Source of the DNA: Paracoccaceae bacterium
Lineage (GTDB): Bacteria > Pseudomonadota > Alphaproteobacteria > Rhodobacterales > Rhodobacteraceae
NCBI GenBank assembly: GCA_029265455.1
Contig: JAJUJF010000001.1
Location: 32,040-96,039 of the forward strand
Direction of reading: 5' to 3'
DNA length: 64,000 nucleotides
Of this stretch, positions 563 to 43,361 are shown one piece after another. Under the pieces are notes generated by a model. It saw nothing but the letters and a program-made list of their open reading frames with translations. It had not been told where the DNA came from and searched no databases. The position numbers and the translations under genes were made by a program. The number at the start of each line of letters is the position of its first letter. The first letter of the stretch is position 1.

Positions 563-1996
563 CTATTCCAACTGCCGGGCCGCCGGGCCGGTTCCGCGGG
601 CCGCCTCGCCCCGTTCCCTCCGTGCGATCCTCAGCACCAGTCCCTCGACACCCACCACCTCGGCCTCGTCACCCGCCACGAACGGCTCCTCCCCCGTCGC
701 CTGCCAGCGCTCGCCATGGACCTGCACCGCGCCGCGACCCTCCTGCCATTCGAGCACGATCGCCCGCGAGCCGATCATCTGCTCGCGCCCCGTCGTGACC
801 GGCTGCCGCCGCGAGCCCACCGCCATCCGCGCGACGAGGAGCGCGAAGGCGAGACTCGCGACGCCGAGGGCCGCGATCACCGGCCAGGAAAGCGCGAGGC
901 CCGGCATGTCGGTGTCGACGAGCAGTGTCGCCCCGAGCGTGATCGCCACCGCCCCCCCGATGCCGAGCACCCCGAACGAGGGGGTGAAGGCTTCCGCGAC
1001 GATCAGCGCCACCCCGAGCAGCATCAGTCCCGCCCCCGCAAACGTCACCGGCAGCACCGAAAGCGCGTAGAACCCGGTCAGCAGGCTGATCGCGCCGATC
1101 ACGCCGGGGAAGATCGCGCCCGGATTGATGAACTCGAAGATGATCCCGTAGATGCCGACCATCATCAGGATCAGCGCGACATTGGGATCGGTCAGCACCG
1201 AGAGCAGCCGCGTCTTCAGCCCCGGCGGCCGCTCCTCGACCTCAAGCCCGGCCGTCGCCAGCGTGACCGTCCTGCCGCCCGCCTCGACCTCCCTCCCGTC
1301 CGCGCCTTCGAGCAGCGCCTCCATGTTCGCCGCGACGAAGTCGATCGCGCCGATCTCCGCCGCTTCCATGGCGCCGAGACTCTCGGCCCGCCGCACCGCG
1401 CGTTCGGCCCAGTCGGCATTCCGCCCCCGGAGCGTCGCCAGTCCGCGGATATAGGCAACGGCGTCGTTGATCGCCTTGGCCTCGCTCGCGGTGCCGGGGG
1501 CGAGGTCCTCGCCGTCCCCGCCATCCTCCTCCTCCGCCCCTCCGAACGGCGATCCGCCACCGCCGAGCTGTACCGGCGTCGCCGCGCCGATATTCGTCCC
1601 CGGCGCCATCGCCGCGACATGAGAGGCATAGAGGATATAGGTCCCGGCACTCGCCGCCCGCGCGCCCCCCGGCGCCACCCAGCCCGCGACCGGCACCGGC
1701 GAGGCGAGGATCGCCCGTACGATCTCGCGCATCGAGGTGTCGAGCCCGCCCGGCGTGTCCATCCGGATGACGACGAGCCACGCCCCCTCCGCGCCTGCCT
1801 CCGCGATCCCGCGCACGAGATAGTCCGCGCTCGCCGGCGTCACCGCGCCTTCGAGCGTCAGCACCACCGCGCGGCCGGAAGCCGCCGGTTCCGTCTGCCC
1901 CGCGCCCGGTCCGACCGCCCCCGCGAGCACGAGAAGCGTGATCACGAGAAGCCGCAGGCCCGGCACCGCCCGTCGAAGAAGCCTCATGTCCGGCAT
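563..1996 (-). CDS. nfeD: NfeD family protein, long form with ClpP-like protease domain
   Basis: DTPGGL...AASAGTYI motifs, multi-TM segment, C-terminal OB-like VHGERWQA; paired with SPFH gene. Start 1996 or 1987. Confidence 0.9.
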
Positions 1997-2093
1997 ATAG
2001 CGCGGCCCGTCCGGATGGTAAGGCGCGCCTCCCGCGGGCGGAGCCCGCCCCGCATGAGCGCGAGGCAACCCGGCTCCGCATCCGCCGGCGAAC

Positions 2094-2993
2094 TCAGGGC
2101 TCGCGGAGGATGCCCTGCGGAAGGTCTCGCCCAGCGAGGTAACGGCTCATCCAGTCCACGGCCTCGGCGATGCCGCCGAAGGGATAGAGGTGAAAGAGGA
2201 CCGTCCCGAGGCTGCCGCCGGCGATCTCGGGAACAAGACGGTCAAGAAACCGCTCCGGCCCCACGCGCTGCAGGAGGTTGACGAGGGAGAAGCCGTACCG
2301 GCGCACGACCCTCGCCGACGAGGCCGCGCCGAACTGGCGGGCAAATCTCAGAAGCCTGCCGGCATCCGCCGGGCCGGGAACGCCGATCCTCACCGGGCAT
2401 CCGATTCCCGCGCTGCGCAACTCCCGGATCCAGCGCAGGACGGCCTCCGCGTCGAAGCCGAACTGCGTGGTGATCTCCACCGAACAGCCCTCCGCCTCGA
2501 GGAAGGCAATTTTCCACTTCAGCGATTTCCAGAGCGTCTCGCTGTCGATCTTCGGATGGCCTTCGGGATAACCTGCGATGCCGACATGGCGGATGGCATG
2601 ACGCCGCAGGACGCCGCTCTCGAGCAGCACGAGCGAATCCGTGAAGGGTCCCGCCGGCTTCGCCGGATCGCCTCCCACGAAAAGGAAGCGCGAGGGCGCC
2701 GCCCCCCTGATCAGCGCGCCGAGCAGATCGTCGAGATCCTCTTCCGACCGCAGCCGGCGCGAGGAAATGATCGGCACCGGCTCGAAGCCGCAGGCCCGGA
2801 TCACCCGCGCGGCATTGATGCGCTGTTCGTGGTTCTCGTTGCCGAGGAACGCGATGTTGATCGGCGTTCCTTGCGGAATCACGTGGCGCGCGGCCTCAAG
2901 CTGGGCGATGTCCTTGCCGGTGACCTCGAGCGAATAGCCTCGCTGACGCTCCGGCGCGGCTGCCGTTCGGGAAGAATCCTCGCGATCCTGCAT
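2094..2993 (-). CDS. metF: Methylenetetrahydrofolate reductase family protein (short MetF-like)
   Basis: GGD, GIAGYPEGHP, ITTQFGFD and VRIGVPGPA motifs. Confidence 0.82.
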   Translation of the reverse strand: MQDREDSSRTAAAPERQRGYSLEVTGKDIAQLEAARHVIPQGTPINIAFLGNENHEQRINAARVIRACGFEPVPIISSRRLRSEEDLDDLLGALIRGAAPSRFLFVGGDPAKPAGPFTDSLVLLESGVLRRHAIRHVGIAGYPEGHPKIDSETLWKSLKWKIAFLEAEGCSVEITTQFGFDAEAVLRWIRELRSAGIGCPVRIGVPGPADAGRLLRFARQFGAASSARVVRRYGFSLVNLLQRVGPERFLDRLVPEIAGGSLGTVLFHLYPFGGIAEAVDWMSRYLAGRDLPQGILREP

Positions 2994-3249: not shown

Positions 3250-4269
3250 TCAGGCGGCGGCCGGATAGAAGGCCTCGTAGAGCGGCTCGAGGGTGCGGCT
3301 GTCGAAGAGCGAGCTCACGCTCGTTCCGTTCGAGATGTTGAGGATCGCCTGGGCGAACAGCGGCGCGAGCGGCACGATCCGGATGTTCTTCGCCTTCCTC
3401 ACCGCCTCGGTCGGCTCGATCGAATCGGTGATGACGAGGCTCTTCATGATTGATTTCTCGATCCGCTCGACCGCGGGCCCGGAGAGGACGCCATGGGTGA
3501 TATAGGCATGCACCTCCTTCGCGCCCTGGTTCTTCAGAAGCTCCGCCGCCTTCACGAGCGTCCCGGCCGTGTCGCAGATGTCGTCGACGATGATGCAGAC
3601 CCGGTCCTTCACGTCGCCGATCACCGTCATCGACGCCACCTCGCCCGGGGCGGCGCGACGCTTGTCGACGATGGCGAGATCGGCGTCGATCCGCTCCGCC
3701 AGTTCCCGCGCCCGCGCGACCCCGCCCACGTCGGGCGAGACCACCGTCACCGCCGACCGGTCGCGGAAGACATGCATGATGTCGAGGGCAAAGACCGGCG
3801 CCGCATAGAGGTTGTCGACCGGGATGTCGAAGAACCCCTGGATCTGCGCGGCATGAAGATCGAGGGTCAGCACCCGCTCGATCCCCGCCTCGACGATCAG
3901 GTTGGCGACGAGCTTCGCGGAGATCGGGGTGCGCGCCTTCGCCCGCCGGTCCTGGCGCGCATAGCCGAAATACGGCATGACCGCCGTAATCCGCCCCGCC
4001 GACGAACGTCGGAGCGCGTCCGTGACGATCAGCAGCTCCATCAGGTTGTCGTTTGCGGGATTGGAGGTCGACTGGACGATGAACATGTCCTCGCCGCGGA
4101 CATTCTCGTAGACCTCGACGAAGATTTCCTGGTCGTTGAACCGCTCGACCCGCGTGTTGACGAGGCCGACTGATTCGCCGCGATGGATGGAGATGCGGCG
4201 CGCGATCGCTGCGGCGAGCGTCTTGTTGGAGTTGCCCGCAATCAGCTTCGGCCGGAGAAGGGGATTCAT
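3250..4269 (-). CDS. prs: Ribose-phosphate pyrophosphokinase
   Basis: [32 protein letters not shown]; start ATG 4269 after RBS GAGG. Confidence 0.97.
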
Positions 4270-10438: not shown

Positions 10439-10576
10439 TCAGCCGAGGCGACGGGCGTCAGGACGATGATCCTCGATCCGGACCCGTCTCGGCGCGGGAC
10501 GGGCTGCGGCCCGAGCGGACAGAAGGCTGGCGCCAAGGACGGCCAGCACGACAAGAAGAAGCGTCAGCAGGTTCAT
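10439..10576 (-). CDS. 45-aa small membrane or secreted protein, not in ORF track
   Basis: MNLLTLLLVVLAVLGASLLSARAAARPAPRRVRIEDHRPDARRLG*; RBS GGGGAG; exact GGAAC-N17-CGTT promoter upstream. Confidence 0.7.
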   Translation of the reverse strand: MNLLTLLLVVLAVLGASLLSARAAARPAPRRVRIEDHRPDARRLG

Positions 10577-10632: not shown

Positions 10633-10658
10633 AACGCGCCTCGAGAGGAGTTCGTTCC
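10633..10658 (-). promoter_or_regulatory. EcfG/sigmaT/RpoE2-type general stress promoter
   Basis: Minus strand GGAAC-gaactcctctcgaggcg-CGTT (N17), oriented toward the 45-aa ORF. Confidence 0.7.
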
Positions 10659-22232: not shown

Positions 22233-22402
22233 CACTCGCTGTGAACGGTACCTTCGTCTCGAATTTTGTCCTTTACAGACTCGACCGGAACACCCACCAT
22301 ATCTTGTAGGTTCGCAGACGCACCCTGCTTACCTGTTGTTAACCGATTGCCCCCGCGCGGGGCTCGCCCCGCCGGGTGGCAGGAAAGCCATGAGGCAAGG
22401 GC

Positions 22403-36285: not shown

Positions 36286-37713
36286 TCAGATACCCGGCTC
36301 GATCGGTTCGCATTCCGCCTGCTGGCGGGCAAGGCGCGAACAGGCAGCCACCGCCGCCTCGCGACTCATGCCGACAAACTGGGCGCGGAACAGCGTCACG
36401 CCGTTTCCGCTGACCGGCTCGATCCGGCGCAGACCGCCCGCAAGTTCCGGCACATCCATGAGAGCCGTGGTGAGCAGATGGCGCTCGGCGTCACCCTTGG
36501 CGCGGAATGCCCCGAGCTGCACCCCCCAGGCATTTCCGCCTGTCGAAGCCTCGCCGGGATCATCGACGCGGATGCCGGCTGTCGCGGATCGAGCGGGCGG
36601 CTCCACCGCGACGAAGGTCGAGCCCATTCCCGCCGCCGCCACGCGCACGCCCTCGATGCCGCGTGGCCTGGGCCGGGCGCCTGTAGCGAGATCGGTGCCG
36701 CGGTCGCTGCCCTGATTGAGTTCAGCATTCACCTCGGCGATCGCCTGGGCGATCGATTCGACATTGCGCGTGACCACCGCGGCCGTTCGCGTCGCGCCAC
36801 GGGGCAGAGGCCTGTCGGCGCTGGCAAGCGCCGTGCCTGCGGCAGCGACCCCGGCGGGCGCGGTAACACCCGCCACCCGGAGGGGCGGCAGTGCCGCAAA
36901 CTGCGCCCGTGCCGGCATCTTCCCGAGGCCGAGATCCATCAGCCGCGCTACCTCGGCGTTGCGTGACGCCGCGCTCTTGCCTCCGAAGAGCGAGACGATC
37001 ACCCGCCGGTCACCGCGCCGGGCAGAGGAGACGAGATTGAAGCCGGCGGCGCGGGTATAGCCGGTCTTGATGCCGTCAGCCCCGTCATAGGAGTCGAGGA
37101 GGCGACTGTTGGTATTGGTGATCGTCGCGGTCCCGGCCGAGGTCGAACGGCGGCTGAAGAGATTGTAGTATTGAGGGAAATCGTAGAGGATCCGCCGGCC
37201 GAGGATCGCCATGTCCTTCGCGGTGGACAGGTGCCCGTCCTGGGTCAGGCCGTGGGCGTTCTTGAAGGTCGTCTGGGTCATGCCCATTGCACGGGCGTAG
37301 GCGTTCATCCGTGCCGCGAACGCCTCTTCCGTCCCCGCCACCGCCTCGCCAAGGGCCGTTGCCGCGTCGTTGGCCGAGCGAATCGCCGCGGCACGGATCA
37401 GGTAACGCAACTCGATCTGCTGGCCTGCCCGCAGCCCGAGTTTCGACGGAGGCTCGGCCGCCGCATTGCGCGAGATCGTCACCTTCTGGTCGAGCGACAT
37501 CCGACCGCGGCGAATCTCGTCGAAGACGATATAGAGGGTCATCATCTTGGTCAGCGAGGCCGGATGCAACCGCGTCTCCGCGTTGCGCGAATGGAGCACC
37601 TGTCCGGTGCGGGCATCCATCACGTAAGCGGCGTATTGCTGGGCCTGAGCAATGGTCGCCGAAGCGGCGAGCACGATAGCGAGAATCACCCCGCGCGTGA
37701 TCGAGTGTCTCAT
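36286..37713 (-). CDS. D-alanyl-D-alanine carboxypeptidase (S11) with C-terminal SPOR-like domain
   Basis: HPASLTKMMT (SxxK), SAN, GIKTGYT, VQLGAF. Confidence 0.93.
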   Translation of the reverse strand: MRHSITRGVILAIVLAASATIAQAQQYAAYVMDARTGQVLHSRNAETRLHPASLTKMMTLYIVFDEIRRGRMSLDQKVTISRNAAAEPPSKLGLRAGQQIELRYLIRAAAIRSANDAATALGEAVAGTEEAFAARMNAYARAMGMTQTTFKNAHGLTQDGHLSTAKDMAILGRRILYDFPQYYNLFSRRSTSAGTATITNTNSRLLDSYDGADGIKTGYTRAAGFNLVSSARRGDRRVIVSLFGGKSAASRNAEVARLMDLGLGKMPARAQFAALPPLRVAGVTAPAGVAAAGTALASADRPLPRGATRTAAVVTRNVESIAQAIAEVNAELNQGSDRGTDLATGARPRPRGIEGVRVAAAGMGSTFVAVEPPARSATAGIRVDDPGEASTGGNAWGVQLGAFRAKGDAERHLLTTALMDVPELAGGLRRIEPVSGNGVTLFRAQFVGMSREAAVAACSRLARQQAECEPIEPGI

Positions 37714-37897
37714 CACTGCCTCCGACACGGGTGATTCCCGCGTCATACCTCGTGAAATGCCGGCTTCTTGTCTCAACCGGCGATTTATTTTCGGTTAGCC
37801 TAGCATGGCGGCATCAACGGGGAAAGCCGTTTGCTGTCAGGGGCCCAGCGCAGGATGCTCGCGTGCAACAGCAATACGGGGAGGCGCATCATCATAC

Positions 37898-37994: not shown

Positions 37995-38552
37995 ATGACC
38001 ACCAAGACGACCGCCCGCTCGGCCGCCAGCGAGGCGGCGCAGGCCGGCACCGACGCCGCGAAGACCGCCGCGGGCGCCACGAAGGACACCGCGAAGACTG
38101 CTGCGGATGCCGCGACCGACGCGGCCCGGGAAGCCACCGCCACCTTCGGCAGCCTCGCTGCTGAAAGCCAGCGCAATCTCAGCGAGAGCCTCGAGAAGTT
38201 CTCGAAGGGCCTCGAAGGCCTTACCTCGTTCAGCCAGGAAAACGTCGAGGCTGTCGTGAAGTCCTCCGAAATCGCCGTCAAGGCGTTCGAGGGCATCGGC
38301 TCCGAAATCTCGGCCTATTCGCGCAAGTCGTTCGAGGACGGTGTCGCCGCCGCCCAGGACCTCGCTTCGGCGCGGACGGTGACCGAGCTCTTCGAGAAGC
38401 AGACTGCCTACGCGCAGACCGCTTTCGAGGGCTGGCTCAACCAGACCAGCAAGATGAACGAGATCCTCGCCGCCGCGGCGAAGGACATCACAACGCCGAT
38501 CGGCGAGCGCCTTTCGGCGGCGTCGGACGCGGTGAAGAGCTTCACGCTCTGA
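37995..38552 (+). CDS. phaP: Phasin family protein with Ala/Thr-rich N-terminal extension
   Basis: [12 protein letters not shown]...[13 protein letters not shown]...PIGER. Confidence 0.85.
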
Positions 38553-38577
38553 TCACCTCGCCGACCTGGGGTGGAAG

Positions 38578-38599
38578 AGGGGGCTTCGGGCCCCCTTTT
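38578..38599 (+). terminator. Intrinsic terminator after the phasin gene
   Basis: AGGGGGC-ttcgg-GCCCCCT followed by a T-run. Confidence 0.72.
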
Positions 38600-38661
38600 C
38601 TATTTGCGGCATTCCCTTATATCCTCCTGCCAGACGCCGCCGTTGGAATGCCGATACGACA

Positions 38662-38985
38662 ATGCCAGGAACCGATCGCAAGGGCCCGGGCTCCGAGACC
38701 GGGCTCCTGACAGAGACGAAGACGAGAACGCAGCGACCGCCTCTCTACAAGGTGCTGCTTCTCAACGATGATTACACGCCGATGGAGTTCGTGGTCCACG
38801 TTCTCGAACGGTTCTTCGGCGTGTCGCATGACCATGCGGTCGAACTCATGCTCACGGTCCATCGCAAGGGTGTCGCTGTCGTCGGCGTCTTCTCCTTCGA
38901 GATCGCCGAGACCAAGGTGACCCAGGTAATGGACTACGCCCGCCGGCATCAGCATCCACTGCAATGCACGATGGAACGGGAATGA
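38662..38985 (+). CDS. clpS: ATP-dependent Clp protease adaptor ClpS
   Basis: [17 protein letters not shown]...VHRKG...EIAETKV...HPLQCTME. Confidence 0.97.
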
Positions 38986-39065: not shown

Positions 39066-40085
39066 GTGAGCCGCCGCGACGACCGGCTTCTTCTCGCCCG
39101 GGAAGCGGGTGAGCTCCCGCTTCCGGATGAGGGCATGATCGCCGTCCTGCGGGCGTCGATGTCCGGGCTCTACTCAGCTGTCGGGTCGCATCGCTTCCTC
39201 TGTCAGCAGGGCTTCCGTCCGCTTCACGATCGCCTCGCCGGCGAGGGTCTCGCCGTTTCGCCCGACACACCGGGATCGGCTGCGGCGGCGATCGTCTTCG
39301 CGACGCGATCCCGCAGCGATTCCCTCGGCGCGGTGGCCGAGGCGCTGGCGCTGGTGCCGCCCGGTGCAGTCGTTGCCGTTACCGGCGCGCGCACGGACGG
39401 AATCGACGCGCTGATGCGCCAGATCGGCAGCGTGATGCCGCTCGACGGCCGCATGTCGAAGGCGCATGGCCGCGTCTTCCACTTCCGCCGCCCCGTACAG
39501 TTGCCGACGGAAGTCGAGAGCTGGGCCGCCGATCATGCCCTCCGCCCCAATGCCGCGGGTTTCATGACCGGTCCGGGAATGTTCAGCCCCGATCATCCCG
39601 ATCCCGGATCGGAGCGCCTCGCTTCGCATGCGCAGGGCCGGCTCGGTGGGGCCGTCGCGGATCTCGGTGCTGGCTGGGGCTGGCTTGCGGCGCGGCTGCT
39701 CGCGACAAATCCGGAGATTGCCACACTTGATCTCCATGAAGCCGAGGCGCGCGCCCTCGAGGCCGCGCGGCGGAACGTCACCGATCCTCGTGCCAGCTTT
39801 CACTGGAGCGATGTCACCCGCCTCACAGGCTCAGGCTACGACTGGGTCGTCTCCAACCCGCCCTTCCACCGTGGCCGCGCTGCGGAGCCGGAGCTTGGCG
39901 TGTCGTTCATCACCGCTGCCGCGCGCCTGCTGAAACCGGCAGGCAGCCTCCTCCTCGTCGCCAACCGCTCCCTCCCTTACGAGGCGACGCTCGCCCGGGT
40001 CTTCCGGAGCGTGACGCCGCTGGCCGAGGATGAAGCATACAAGGTGATCGAGGCGAAGCGCCCGGTGACCGCCCGATCCGGCTGA
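39066..40085 (+). CDS. Class I SAM-dependent methyltransferase (RsmC/MTS-like)
   Basis: PGMFS...DPGS, DLGAGWG, NPPFH, VANRSLPYE. Confidence 0.9.
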   Translation: MSRRDDRLLLAREAGELPLPDEGMIAVLRASMSGLYSAVGSHRFLCQQGFRPLHDRLAGEGLAVSPDTPGSAAAAIVFATRSRSDSLGAVAEALALVPPGAVVAVTGARTDGIDALMRQIGSVMPLDGRMSKAHGRVFHFRRPVQLPTEVESWAADHALRPNAAGFMTGPGMFSPDHPDPGSERLASHAQGRLGGAVADLGAGWGWLAARLLATNPEIATLDLHEAEARALEAARRNVTDPRASFHWSDVTRLTGSGYDWVVSNPPFHRGRAAEPELGVSFITAAARLLKPAGSLLLVANRSLPYEATLARVFRSVTPLAEDEAYKVIEAKRPVTARSG

Positions 40086-40099
40086 CCGCTTGCCCCCGC

Positions 40100-40912
40100 T
40101 CAGCGCCGCCTTCCCTTCTTCTCGCCCTCGACGCTCTTGCGAAGTGCATCGAGAATCGAGACCACTTCGCCTTCGCCGGAGTCACCGGTACGGGCGGGAC
40201 GCCTTTTCGGTGCGGGCCTTGCCTTCCTCTGCTTCTCCCTGATCATCGTCACCAGCTGGTCCTGGACCGGATCCCGCACCATCTTTGGCGACCAGGGCTT
40301 CGTCCGGCTGTCGATCAGCTGCGTGAGGAGTTCGAGCGCCTCCGGCTCGGGCTCAACCGCCTTGATCCCCTCGAAATACGGGTCCGGATCGCGCACCTCG
40401 TCGCCGTAGCGAAGCGTCCAGACCACGAGCCCCTTGCCACAGGGTTCGACCATCACCGCCCGCTCGCGGCGGTAGAGCACCAGCCGGGAGATGCCGACGG
40501 TGTCGGTGGCCTTCATCGCCTCCCGGATGACCGCGAAGGCCTCGTCGCTCGCCTTGTCGTCCGGCTTGAGGTGATGCGGCCGGTCAAGCCAGATCCAGCC
40601 GATCGAATCACGTGGCACGAACTTCTCGATGTCGATGACCCGCGTGCTCTCGAGTGCGACGGCTTCCAGATCCTCGTCCTCGACGATCACGTGCCGCTCA
40701 TCCGGGAGGAAGTAGGCACGTGCCTCCTCCCCCTCCGCCACCGGCTCGCCAGTCACCGAGTCCATGTACTGGCTGCGGACGCGGTTCCCGGTCTTCGCGT
40801 TCAGCGTATGAAAACGCACCTTCTCCCGGGTGGTCAGCGCCGGCGCCATCGTCACGGCGCAGCTCACCAGGGAGAACTTGAGATATCCCTTCCAGAAGGA
40901 GCGAGGAGCCAT
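40100..40912 (-). CDS. ku: Ku protein (non-homologous end joining)
   Basis: RSFWKGYLKFSLVSCAV, FHTLNAKTGNRV, IDIEKFVP, LRYGDEVR, VVSILDALRKS. Confidence 0.95.
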   Translation of the reverse strand: MAPRSFWKGYLKFSLVSCAVTMAPALTTREKVRFHTLNAKTGNRVRSQYMDSVTGEPVAEGEEARAYFLPDERHVIVEDEDLEAVALESTRVIDIEKFVPRDSIGWIWLDRPHHLKPDDKASDEAFAVIREAMKATDTVGISRLVLYRRERAVMVEPCGKGLVVWTLRYGDEVRDPDPYFEGIKAVEPEPEALELLTQLIDSRTKPWSPKMVRDPVQDQLVTMIREKQRKARPAPKRRPARTGDSGEGEVVSILDALRKSVEGEKKGRRR

Positions 40913-40984
40913 CCAGCCTCCGTCATCATCCGGGCGATATGCTGCACCCCCACAGCCCTCGCCTGGAGCGGCAAGGAACAGAAG

Positions 40985-41062
40985 TCAGATCGCCCCGAAC
41001 AGCATCAGGAGGATGATCAACGTGATCGGCACCCCGAGCAGCCACAACAGGATCGGAACCAT
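40985..41062 (-). CDS. 25-aa single-TM small protein, not in ORF track
   Basis: MVPILLWLLGVPITLIILLMLFGAI*; RBS GAGGGG, 10 nt after the upstream sORF stop. Confidence 0.78.
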   Translation of the reverse strand: MVPILLWLLGVPITLIILLMLFGAI

Positions 41063-41071
41063 GGTGTCCCC

Positions 41072-41158
41072 TCAGAAGATCAGGGCAAGGAGCCCGATGA
41101 CGACCAGGAGGCCGATGAGGAAGATGACGCCGATCGTGCCTCCGATGAACTTCAGCAT
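41072..41158 (-). CDS. 28-aa single-TM small protein, YohP-like, not in ORF track
   Basis: MLKFIGGTIGVIFLIGLLVVIGLLALIF*; RBS AAGGAG; exact EcfG-type promoter upstream. Confidence 0.8.
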   Translation of the reverse strand: MLKFIGGTIGVIFLIGLLVVIGLLALIF

Positions 41159-41207
41159 TGCCGCTCCTTTCGGGCAAGAACGCGACGGGGCGCGTGATTC
41201 GCTGATC

Positions 41208-41232
41208 AACGGGCAGCGCCCCCGGCGGTTCC
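41208..41232 (-). promoter_or_regulatory. EcfG/sigmaT/RpoE2-type general stress promoter
   Basis: Minus strand GGAAC-cgccgggggcgctgcc-CGTT (N16), exact consensus, 50 nt upstream of the 28-aa ATG. Confidence 0.78.
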
Positions 41233-41235
41233 CCG

Positions 41236-41574
41236 TCAGACGACGCGGATCAGCCGGGCTTCCAGCGGGCGGAGCACCTGGCGAAGATCATGGCCGCGGC
41301 GCAGGATCCGCCCGTCCATGCCGAGCACCGAATACTGCCCCTGCCGCGCGGCAAGCTTCGGCCGCTTCTCGATCCGGTAAAGCGGATGTTCGGCCGAATG
41401 CCGGAACACCGAGAACACCGCCACGTCATGCAGGAGCGAGATCCCGTAATCCCGCCAGATCCCGGCCGCCACGGCACGGCCGTAGAGGCCCAGAATCACG
41501 GAGAGTTCCGCTCGATTGAAGCTGACGCGGTCGGGAAGGGGCGAGAACGGCACAACCTTGGTGGATGGTCCCAT
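41236..41574 (-). CDS. DUF2794 domain protein
   Basis: VSFNRAELSVILGLYGRAVAAGIWRDYGI...PLYRIEKRPKL. Confidence 0.9.
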   Translation of the reverse strand: MGPSTKVVPFSPLPDRVSFNRAELSVILGLYGRAVAAGIWRDYGISLLHDVAVFSVFRHSAEHPLYRIEKRPKLAARQGQYSVLGMDGRILRRGHDLRQVLRPLEARLIRVV

Positions 41575-41654
41575 CCCCCCAGCTTAACCGCCGTGCCACC
41601 GTTGGCAAGCTGCCCGCTTCGTCCTGTACGGACATGCCCCGGTGCTGCGCCTGC

Positions 41655-41679
41655 CGAACCAGGTGCCCGTACCTGCGTT
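41655..41679 (+). promoter_or_regulatory. EcfG-type promoter (near consensus)
   Basis: CGAAC-caggtgcccgtacctg-CGTT (N16), 43 nt upstream of the cupin ATG. Confidence 0.62.
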
Positions 41680-41722
41680 CATCCGCGAAGCGCATGACTT
41701 GAGGACTGGAGACGCAGCCGCC

Positions 41723-42217
41723 ATGCCCGACCCCGAGCAGATCTTCCTCGAACCCGACGACGGGATCCCCAATTCTCCCCTGCCGGTCCTCATCTACCGC
41801 GCCGCCTGCCCGGAGGGTGCCGCAGCTCTCGAGGGACTGTTCCTGCGAAACGGGTGGAGCGGGCTGTGGCGGGACGGCGTGTTCGATTTCCATCACTACC
41901 ACAGCCGGGGCCACGAGGTGCTCGGCGTCGCCGCCGGCTCGGCGCGGCTTGCCCTCGGCGGGCCCGGAGGTCGGGACATCGACGTGACCGCCGGCGACGT
42001 GCTGGTCCTTCCCGCCGGCACCGGCCATCGCCGGATCGGAGCGAGCAGCGGCTTCCTTGTCGTTGGCGGCTATCCTCCCGGACAGGAGGGCGACATCTGC
42101 CGGCCTCCCGCGACGCCTGAGCAGCGCCGCCGGATCGCCTCCCTTCCCCTGCCCGACTCCGATCCCGTGCTCGGGGACGACGGCCTCACCCGCCTCTGGA
42201 AAAACCTGCCGTCGTGA
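41723..42217 (+). CDS. Cupin domain protein (YjlB/COG4297-like)
   Basis: IPNSPLPVLIY, GVFDFHHYHSRGHEVLG, GDVLVLPAGTGH, VVGGYP. Confidence 0.86.
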   Translation: MPDPEQIFLEPDDGIPNSPLPVLIYRAACPEGAAALEGLFLRNGWSGLWRDGVFDFHHYHSRGHEVLGVAAGSARLALGGPGGRDIDVTAGDVLVLPAGTGHRRIGASSGFLVVGGYPPGQEGDICRPPATPEQRRRIASLPLPDSDPVLGDDGLTRLWKNLPS

Positions 42218-42254
42218 GCCAAGTGAGTGGCCATCATAGCCGGGGAGGGAGACG

Positions 42255-43361
42255 ATGAAGGTTGAGGGCAGGCCGACGCGCACCATCTGGGTCGAGCGCC
42301 CGCCCGCGGACGGGCAGCGCGGGGCCGTCGGCATCATCGACCAGACCCGCCTGCCGCATGCCTTCGCGACCGAAAGCCTCGAGACGCCCGAAGATGCCGC
42401 CCGCGCCATCCGCGACATGCTCGTTCGCGGGGCGCCCCTGATCGGCATTACCGCCGCCTACGGCATCGCGCTTGCGCTCCATGACGATCCGTCGGACGCC
42501 CGCCTGCGCGAAGCCCATGACCTGCTGCTCGCGACACGCCCGACCGCGGTCAATCTCCGCTGGGCGCTCGAGGCGATGATGCACCGCCTCCGCCAGCTCC
42601 CCGAGGCCGAACGCGAGGCCGCTGCCTGGATTGCCGCCGGCGAACTCGCCGACGAGGATGCCGAGATCTGCCGCACGATCGGCGTCAACGGCCTGCCCCT
42701 GATCCGGGACATCGCCGCACGGAAGGCGGGGCCGGTCAACATCCTCACCCATTGCAACGCCGGCTGGCTCGCCACGGTCGACTGGGGCACCGCCACCGCA
42801 CCCGTCTACCAGGCGCATGATTCGGGCATCGAGGTTCACGTCTGGGTCGACGAGACCCGCCCGCGCAACCAGGGCGCCGCACTCACGGCGTGGGAACTCG
42901 CCAATCATGGCGTCCCTCACCACGTCATCGCGGACAATACCGGCGGTCACCTGATGCAGAATGGTCTCGTCGACATGGTGATCGTCGGCACCGACCGCAC
43001 CACGGCGAACGGCGACGTGTGCAACAAGATCGGCACCTATCTCAAGGCGCTCGCGGCGCATGACAACGGTGTGCCCTTCTACGTTGCCCTGCCCTCTCCG
43101 ACCATCGACTTCTCGCTTGGCTCCGGCCGGGACATCCCGATCGAGGAGCGGAGCCCGGAGGAAGTCACCCACATCTGGGGCCGCACCGCACAAGGTGACG
43201 TGACGCAGGTTCAGATCACCCCCGACGCCTCGCCCGCCGTCAACTATGCCTTCGACGTGACACCCGCCCGGCTCGTGACCGCGCTCATCACCGAACGCGG
43301 CGTCGTTGCGGCAGACCCCGCTGCCCTTGCCGCCATGTTCCCCGAGCGCGCCGCCGCCTGA
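42255..43361 (+). CDS. mtnA: S-methyl-5-thioribose-1-phosphate isomerase
   Basis: [41 protein letters not shown]. Confidence 0.96.

Follow-up and report, generated by a model that had tools for sequence, protein, structure and literature searches.

We analyzed a locus in a 64,000-nucleotide (nt) stretch of the genome of a Paracoccaceae bacterium (contig JAJUJF010000001.1; the whole stretch is hereafter referred to as the window), in which a gene for the DNA-end-binding protein Ku lies behind two small open reading frames (sORF1 and sORF2) and a motif of the type recognized by the general-stress sigma factor EcfG. An earlier note on this DNA had described the promoter, both sORFs with their ribosome-binding sites (RBSs), the gaps between the genes, and ku, all on the minus strand, and every one of these elements was found in the sequence. 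The coordinates are collected in Table 1, together with those of the DUF2794 gene upstream and of the convergent methyltransferase gene that closes the locus past ku. The full promoter-sORF1-sORF2-ku order was seen at three further loci, which we refer to as L009 (near-identical to the window), L001 (from a metagenome-assembled genome labelled uncultured Rhodobacterales), and L005; the Ku proteins of L001 and L005 are 76 and 77% identical, respectively, to that of the window. The DUF2794 neighbor is common to L001, L005, and L009, and the convergent MTS gene is also present in L005. For comparison, we used four other Ku loci whose products are 71–60% identical to the window Ku (L006, L007, L008, and L002, the last from Methylopila), eight loci with genes resembling sORF1 (designated yohP-like, including L017 from Skermanella rosea, L018 from Geminicoccus, L019 from Paracoccus, L020 from Azospirillum, L022, and L023), and 13 loci outside this clade with sORF2-like genes.

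Table 1. Features of the sORF1-sORF2-ku locus, in coordinates of the window
Feature	Coordinates	Strand	Remarks
EcfG-type (ECF15) promoter motif	41208..41232	-	GGAAC at 41232-41228, 16 nt, CGTT at 41211-41208; exact match
Shine-Dalgarno sequence AAAGGAG of sORF1	41164..41170	-	Read from the sequence; GGAGCGG kept in L001 and L005
sORF1, YohP family, 28 amino acids, MLKFIGGTIGVIFLIGLLVVIGLLALIF	41072..41158	-	Stop codon (41074-41072) included; leader of 49 nt from CGTT to ATG at 41158; PF25659 and synonymous excess
Shine-Dalgarno-like sequence GAGGGG of sORF2	41068..41073	-	Overlaps the sORF1 stop codon; read from the sequence; counterparts GAGGGCGG in L001 and GAGGAGGCGG in L005
sORF2, hydrophobic peptide of 25 amino acids, MVPILLWLLGVPITLIILLMLFGAI	40985..41062	-	Stop codon (40987-40985) included; ATG at 41062, 9 nt past sORF1; synonymous excess and homologues
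sORF2-ku spacer, 72 nt	40913..40984	-	Holds the ku RBS GGAGG at 40921-40917
ku, 270 amino acids	40100..40912	-	ATG at 40912, stop codon 40102-40100; TIGR02772, PF02735
DUF2794 gene, upstream context	41236..41574	-	Stop codon 41238-41236; PF10984, E = 2.7e-38
MTS-domain methyltransferase gene	39066..40085	+	Convergent; PF05175, E = 1.6e-41

The coding status of the two sORFs was assessed by counting codon changes between the window, L001, and L005. In sORF1, synonymous and nonsynonymous changes numbered 6 and 1 between the window and L001, 11 and 0 between the window and L005, and 11 and 1 between L001 and L005; the corresponding counts were 9 and 2, 6 and 4, and 8 and 4 for sORF2, and 28 and 27, 31 and 20, and 25 and 31 for the first 100 codons of ku. 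All replacements in sORF2 were conservative (i.e. within A, I, L, V, M, and T). Further, the gap between the two sORFs measures 9 nt in the window, 11 nt in L001, and 10 nt in L005, so that the frame relation between them shifts while each peptide and its RBS are preserved. Because of the synonymous excess and the maintenance of both frames despite a variable gap, we conclude that sORF1 and sORF2 are, judging by their codon changes, real genes under purifying selection, and the view of the earlier note that two membrane microprotein genes lie here is borne out in relatives in which Ku itself has diverged. A fusion by read-through of the sORF1 stop codon, a TGA that in the window is in frame with sORF2, was considered separately and is ruled out by the gap lengths in the relatives (11 nt in L001 and 10 nt in L005). 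We also weighed whether the sORFs are untranslated and the region serves as a long structured 5′ leader or small RNA in front of ku. Both reading frames are indeed very short, gene callers overlooked them, and the Sinorhizobium meliloti homologue of sORF2 was not found in the text supplements of a ribosome profiling study of S. meliloti. However, the strong synonymous excess, the frames held across variable gaps, the good RBSs, a match of sORF1 to the YohP profile well over the gathering threshold, and conservation of the peptides across alphaproteobacterial orders all speak for translation, and no Rfam family was found in the window region or at four homologous loci; we therefore regard an untranslated leader as extremely unlikely.

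The product of sORF1 matched the Pfam family PF25659 (YohP) with 46.7 bits (cut-off, 27 bits; E = 3e-12), with residues 1–28 aligned to positions 1–28 of the model, and scored 16 bits against the NCBIfam YohP equivalog (NF011345/PRK14762), which does not reach the cut-off of 58 bits. We conclude that sORF1 is a member of the YohP family but not an equivalog of enterobacterial YohP. A protein database search returned 573 relatives, and PF25659 was found on all 120 of the 120 among the matches listed; the relatives listed carry spurious N-terminal extensions introduced by gene callers. Across Skermanella, Geminicoccus, Paracoccus, Azospirillum, Cereibacter, Pelagibacterium, and a Stutzerimonas, the 28-residue core hardly varies, and some alphaproteobacterial homologues have been named "small membrane protein YohP" by NCBI. 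A tblastn search of sORF1 against plasmids gave no match, probably owing to low-complexity masking.

Like Escherichia coli YohP, which has 27 residues, sORF1 belongs to the same size class, matches the family model over its full length, and has a single transmembrane helix; it retains the N-terminal lysine (Lys-3) and, at residues 15–23, the sequence IGLLVVIGL, a glycine motif of the IGLLVVTGV type that corresponds to the IGLLVVxG motif whose first glycine (G15) is needed for dimerization of YohP in E. coli (PMC7549839). The two genes would also resemble each other in being under stress or stationary-phase control. They differ in the N-terminal half of the peptide (MLKFIGGTIG in sORF1) and at the C terminus, where the lysine at position 24 of E. 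coli YohP is replaced (GLLALIF), although some relatives keep it (e.g. GLFKLIF in Cereibacter), and the K24A variant of E. coli YohP still gave condensation. They differ, further, in the promoter ahead of sORF1, an EcfG-type extracytoplasmic function (ECF) promoter, and in genomic context: E. coli yohP sits between the mdtQ pseudogene and dusC (PMC12719787), a neighborhood not kept at sORF1. Downstream of sORF1 come another microprotein gene and ku, whereas the majority of the alphaproteobacterial homologues sampled are monocistronic. In E. coli, YohP brings about sublethal depolarization, nucleoid condensation, ppGpp accumulation with a stringent response, and metabolic silencing (PMC12542507, PMC12719787). 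The guess in the earlier note that the microproteins de-energize the membrane or change the nucleoid thus agrees with what has been published for the family of sORF1 and, having been described already, is not new. As a separate observation, the yohP-like gene of Skermanella rosea (L017, positions 971–2147) lies 16 nt after csbD, and this csbD-yohP pair is divergent from a gene for an EcfG-like ECF sigma factor with a PhyR_sigma2-type Pfam match, which makes a general-stress regulator gene the immediate neighbor of the pair.

The second peptide belongs to a family of 24–26 residues with the core ILLWLLGVP, in which M1, an I, a W, the sequence G-V-P, and a further I are invariant (alignment A3). 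DNA-level searches located homologues in metagenomes (L010, L011, and L012) and in replicons of S. meliloti (L013; GR4 megaplasmid pRmeGR4d), S. terangae (L027), S. americanum (L028), and Paracoccus versutus (L015, Paracoccus), with further homologues in Ensifer adhaerens, Rhizobium sp. ACO-34A, Phyllobacterium zundukense, and Beijerinckia indica. Nearly all of the copies in replicons and metagenomes are unannotated. No Pfam or NCBIfam entry matched sORF2 or any of 11 family members, a PDB sequence search with the profiles of both peptide families returned nothing, a collection of 5.8 billion proteins held no entry sharing words with a tandem-doubled sORF2 query, and the published literature, searched by peptide string (LWLLGVP, WLMGVP, and variants), gave nothing relevant. 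The empty search of the protein collection agrees with the remark in the earlier note that the ORF track lacks both sORFs. PADLOC, which detects anti-phage defense systems, found no match for any of the four proteins tested. The possibility that sORF2 is a diverged YohP was rejected (hhalign probability, 5.5%).

In length (about 25 residues), nearly complete hydrophobicity, and possession of a stress promoter, sORF2 resembles the small stress-induced membrane proteins and type I toxins (YncL, TisB, and the like), a class that has been reviewed (PMC12648545) and compared with TisB (PMC12542507). It differs in showing neither an antisense RNA nor an antitoxin partner and in having no sequence relationship with YohP, nor with entries of Pfam, NCBIfam, or PDB. 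The homologues have an N-terminal K or R; the window copy is devoid of any charged residue. Next to sORF1, sORF2 probably represents another small membrane peptide with a single helix that is induced by stress.

Outside the clade, sORF2-like genes were found in several settings. Six of them (L010, L011, L013, L015, L027, and L028) stand alone with their own terminator. In L012, two family members lie in tandem on the plus strand, at positions 330–407 (MVPILLWLLGVPLTIIIILLLLGVI) and 463–540 (MRPILLWLLGVPVSIIIILYLLGVV). Each is preceded by a leader of some 40 nt, which is duplicated (GAAGGTGTTTTTACCTATAAACCAAGGAGCAAGCA), and the two copies lie between a CsbD gene (PF05532, 72 bits), immediately before them, and creA, after them. 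The L012 contig is low in GC and probably non-alphaproteobacterial; from this context, the sORF2 family would therefore reach beyond EcfG-bearing bacteria while remaining tied to general-stress genes. A subfamily starting with MGRGILLW lies 3–9 nt upstream of a gene for a multi-pass membrane protein of about 300 residues that belongs to no Pfam family (L014, positions 1489–2478; L025, 1189–2178; and L026, 1189–2193; from Ensifer adhaerens, Rhizobium sp. ACO-34A, and Phyllobacterium), and the peptide and this protein may be a conserved microprotein-partner pair. In Beijerinckia (L016, positions 649–1566), the sORF2-like gene instead follows a hypothetical gene of 274 codons whose product has no Pfam match.

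The third gene of the locus is easily placed. Its product scored 263.8 bits against TIGR02772 (Ku_bact; cut-off, 150 bits) and matched PF02735 (E = 4e-41), it has the Ku beta-barrel core and a basic C-terminal tail (KQRKARPAPKRRPAR...EKKGRRR), and, among 8,000 candidates scored, 7269 were homologous at E <= 1e-30. By these matches, the window ku encodes an ordinary bacterial Ku, the DNA-end-binding protein of non-homologous end joining (NHEJ). No LigD gene was found adjacent to it among the translations read within the window between 37 and 44 kb.

The evidence for general-stress control of the locus comes from the conservation of the motif. Two exact motifs were counted in the window, compared with an expectation of 0.64, and two or more turned up in 14 of 100 shuffled sequences; the count by itself is not significant, and it is conservation that settles the reality of the site at this locus. 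In L001 and L005, the motif is present at the same site with N17 spacing. Among the three genomes, both reading frames and both promoter elements stand out as conserved islands from diverged DNA, which comprises the leader, the spacer, and the sequence upstream of the motif. The two elements are 16–17 nt apart, lie less than about 100 nt before the first start codon, and fit the published EcfG consensus, GGAAC-N16/17-(C)GTT (PMC6599016). Motifs of this type also stand directly ahead of ku, at a distance of about 20–45 nt, in L006 (N17-CGTT), L007 (N16-GGTT), L008 (N17-CGTT), and L002 (N17-TGTT); ahead of the monocistronic yohP-like genes of L018, L019, L020, and L022, with a near-match in L023; and ahead of the sORF2-like genes of L010, L011, L013, L015, L025, L027, and L028, mostly about 30–35 nt before the start codon. 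Because only about 0.001 exact motifs are expected per 200 nt on one strand (from shuffles of the window), this recurrence across loci is far beyond chance. The claim of an exact general-stress promoter put forward in the earlier note appears sound, and the sORF2 family appears to be a common, overlooked member of the EcfG regulon.

That ku should be under such control in an alphaproteobacterium has precedent. In S. meliloti, RpoE2/EcfG drives ku3-ku4 and ligD4, and an EcfG box lies ahead of a ku gene in about 90% of the alphaproteobacteria that carry ku (PMC6379672); ku is also listed in the EcfG regulon table of Sphingomonas melonis (PMC6599016). The window ku resembles these EcfG/RpoE2-dependent NHEJ genes (S. 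meliloti ku3-ku4 and ligD4; S. melonis ku) in lying downstream of GGAAC-N16/17-CGTT, and the published arrangement, in which the motif comes just before ku, is seen in L006, L007, L008, and L002 (PMC6379672; PMC6599016). The window clade differs from it in having two microprotein cistrons (about 250 nt) between promoter and ku, and its operon differs from the S. meliloti type in containing neither a second ku nor ligD. A more distant parallel is Bacillus subtilis, in which ku is, as cited in PMC6379672, controlled by the forespore sigma factor SigG; there, too, a sigma factor specific to dormancy governs ku, although it belongs to another sigma family, the cell-biological setting differs, and no microprotein cistrons lie upstream.

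Several sequences around the motif deserve mention in their own right. The stop codon of the DUF2794 gene is only 3 nt from GGAAC, and a terminator scan between the two detected none; read-through from DUF2794 could keep the sORFs and ku expressed at a basal level. Contigs from RNA runs that cover the DUF2794-promoter junction (X25, X27, and X31) fit such read-through but also DNA carry-over. In L001, the interval from the DUF2794 stop codon to the motif (positions 3597–3640) holds a short tandem repetition (GCTGATCCGCCGTCT GCTGATCCGCGTCT ...) that copies the 3′ end of DUF2794, has no counterpart in the window, and resembles a scar left by slippage or duplication. The other exact motif in the window, GGAAC-N17-CGTT at positions 10658–10633 on the minus strand, is followed 56 nt on by an RBS and a small membrane-type reading frame of 45 codons (positions 10576–10439, minus strand; MNLLTLLLVVLAVLGASLLSARAAARPAPRRVRIEDHRPDARRLG) that is convergent to groEL and has no Pfam match; this may be a third unannotated general-stress microprotein of this genome. 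A relaxed EcfG-like motif, GGAAC-N17-GGTT (positions 22287–22312, plus strand), lies 90 nt upstream of a reading frame of 167 codons starting MGIIERDYHTEDLHPIDIVETLALEQSWEF.

The arrangement of the locus points to a single transcript. The three genes are on the same strand, separated by gaps of 9 and 72 nt, their order is conserved, and no internal promoter or terminator was found: a consensus scan of positions 39800–41700 detected neither a sigma-70-like promoter nor an intrinsic terminator, and no GGAAC/CGTT or sigma-70-like motif was found in the sORF2-ku spacers of the window, L001, and L005, which are not conserved in sequence. The description of the spacer in the earlier note as free of an obvious terminator was thus confirmed, and no terminator-grade hairpin was found in it. 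Because each of the sORF-less Ku relatives sampled carries an EcfG motif of its own and the window ku has none, the simplest reading is that ku uses the promoter upstream of sORF1. Taken together, these features make a tricistronic promoter-sORF1-sORF2-ku transcript likely. Contigs from two compost "metatranscriptome" runs (X25 and X27) span ku-sORF2-sORF1 but run on past the promoter into DUF2794, carry no strand information, and may include DNA; four other RNA runs yielded only single-read fragments at the locus.

Some points weigh against a single stress transcript with the functions that we attach to it. Similar AAC/CGT motifs are recognized by other ECF sigma factors, and EcfG is not uniquely implied by the motif. 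The sORF1 product is not a YohP equivalog and has no C-terminal lysine of the E. coli type, because of which the transfer of YohP function to it is a matter of inference. The contigs of the compost runs (X25–X27) cover the promoter, DUF2794, and the convergent methyltransferase gene about evenly, may derive from DNA or from read-through RNA, and are mute on transcript ends. Finally, the spacer holds a 7-bp GC-rich hairpin (CCUUGCC/GGCGAGG) that starts 9 nt past the sORF2 stop codon, and terminators in these high-GC genomes often do without U-tracts, so that weak or partial termination is possible.

The hairpin leads to an alternative in which the locus comprises two units, a short sORF1-sORF2 RNA that ends at this structure and a ku gene served by an unrecognized promoter in the spacer or only by leaky read-through, the adjacency of the two being incidental. 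A GC hairpin is also present at this place in L001, the hairpins at the ends of monocistronic relatives are frequently without U-tracts, and sORF2-like and yohP-like genes are normally monocistronic, all of which would fit two units. However, the spacers fold no more stably than shuffled sequences in all three genomes (z = −0.15 in the window, −1.29 in L001, and −0.02 in L005), whereas the 3′ ends of monocistronic sORF2-like and yohP-like genes gave z = −4.1 (L010), −4.5 (L015), −4.0 (L018), and −2.65 (L019). The unconserved, motif-free spacers also offer no recognizable promoter for a separate ku unit, and in relatives that lack the sORFs the EcfG motif always stands directly before ku, which would make a ku without a stress promoter unusual in this clade. 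We therefore consider two units unlikely and retain the tricistronic transcript, with EcfG as the predicted sigma factor of its promoter.

Whether the three genes form a dedicated system was judged from their distribution. The sORF-sORF-ku linkage was seen only in the clade with DUF2794-ku-MTS synteny (the window and L009, L001, and L005); at the four more distant Ku loci, the promoter lies directly before ku and there are no sORFs. None of the eight yohP-like loci had ku beside the yohP-like gene, and the same was true of the 13 sORF2-like loci outside the clade. Likewise, no yohP-like locus had an adjacent sORF2-like gene (L022 alone has one, about 900 nt downstream), and no sORF2-like locus outside the clade had an adjacent yohP-like gene (0 of 13). 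The linkage proposed in the earlier note is thus kept in L001, L005, and L009 and absent from the loci sampled beyond the clade; its absence from relatives, named in the earlier note as grounds for refutation, therefore holds outside this narrow group.

These results bear on a more ambitious reading, namely, that the locus is a dedicated three-part dormancy and repair system in which the two peptides act jointly, as a heteromer or a toxin-antidote pair, to de-energize the membrane and compact the nucleoid for end protection by Ku. In its favor, the order is conserved in three diverged genomes, YohP condenses the nucleoid in E. coli (PMC12542507), and the L022 stress island provides a second, independent case in which both peptide families occur within about 1 kb. 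However, the linkage to ku does not extend to the other Ku loci or to any yohP-like or sORF2-like locus sampled outside the clade, and the peptides are usually found alone, sORF2 occurring otherwise with csbD (L012) or the gene for the membrane protein of about 300 residues (L014, L025, and L026). Because each peptide family normally occurs alone, the toxin/antidote-like pair or hetero-oligomer suggested in the earlier note is unlikely, and we rate a dedicated system as a whole very unlikely. The term "undescribed system" does not hold either, since EcfG-driven ku (PMC6379672, PMC6599016) and the effects of YohP have already been published. Overall, we conclude that the locus is, from its phylogenetic distribution, a lineage-specific joining of three general-stress-regulon genes and not a new dedicated system; the modestly novel part of it is the uncatalogued sORF2 (LWLLGVP) microprotein family.

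The L022 island itself (positions 764–2182, plus strand) has two EcfG motifs, the first before the yohP-like gene and the second before a hemerythrin gene, an 80-codon reading frame, the sORF2-like gene (MGKGILLWLLGIPIPIIILILLFW), and a reading frame for a transmembrane peptide of 55 residues. It is the only other place seen with both microprotein families together.

The surroundings of ku in the window are ordinary housekeeping genes with no sign of mobile elements. Past the methyltransferase gene lie, on the plus strand, genes for a phasin (PF09361, checked against Pfam) and a ClpS-like adaptor (named from its translation) at positions 37995–38985, and a PBP5-type carboxypeptidase gene, also named from its translation, at 36286–37776 on the minus strand. 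On the other side, a cupin gene (Pfam-checked) and a gene for an MtnA-like isomerase (from its translation) occupy positions 41642–43361 on the plus strand.

From the foregoing, we propose that the locus is probably a lineage-specific general-stress operon of an uncultured alphaproteobacterium that occurs in sludge, compost, and manure. Its anatomy, the coding status of both sORFs, their family membership, the reappearance of the promoter motif at other loci, and the narrow linkage were established in silico; the physiological effects ascribed to the peptides are extrapolated from work on E. coli YohP. A single EcfG-type promoter (41232–41208) would drive one transcript, with a start predicted near position 41200, comprising three cistrons, each with its own RBS, for a YohP-family peptide, an LWLLGVP-family peptide, and Ku. 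Three gene types that elsewhere stand alone with their own GGAAC-N16/17-(C)GTT motif would thereby be concatenated and induced jointly by stress or stationary phase. By analogy with E. coli YohP, the sORF1 peptide would enter the inner membrane, where its conserved glycine motif would probably make it a dimer, and lower the proton motive force sublethally, leading to nucleoid compaction, a stringent response, and reduced metabolism. Ku binds the ends of double-strand breaks for NHEJ where no sister chromosome is available, and in non-replicating cells of this kind it would protect and bridge break ends; because Ku acts when a sister chromosome is absent, this role would match the quiescent state for which the regulon prepares the cell. 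The coupling would be one of co-regulated, independent effectors; the genes would form neither a dedicated machine of several parts nor a toxin-antidote pair, and their products no obligate heteromer. A direct interplay between peptide-induced compaction and Ku is speculative, and we think it very improbable.

What is new at this locus is, thus, the operon variant, in which microprotein cistrons are placed between an EcfG promoter and ku, and the uncatalogued LWLLGVP family. The locus also exposes an annotation gap, as it contains two real genes, one from a family (YohP) whose role was worked out only in 2025 and the other from a family that is uncatalogued yet present in model rhizobia and Paracoccus, where textbook EcfG promoters precede it. 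By extension, alphaproteobacterial EcfG regulons probably hold conserved microproteins that have been overlooked by annotation and hence by regulon tables. A stronger proposal, which we regard as quite unlikely, is that sORF2 founds a widespread stress family and that its co-expression with a YohP homologue and Ku is functionally meaningful, membrane de-energization and nucleoid compaction brought about by the peptides holding break ends together and stopping replication, so that Ku-dependent NHEJ becomes efficient in quiescent cells; if true, this would establish a physical and genetic link between quiescence mediated by small membrane proteins and double-strand-break repair. S. meliloti and Paracoccus carry the parts separately, and the YohP-sORF2-ku order may be read as a clue from nature that cells deploy NHEJ jointly with membrane peptides that induce quiescence.

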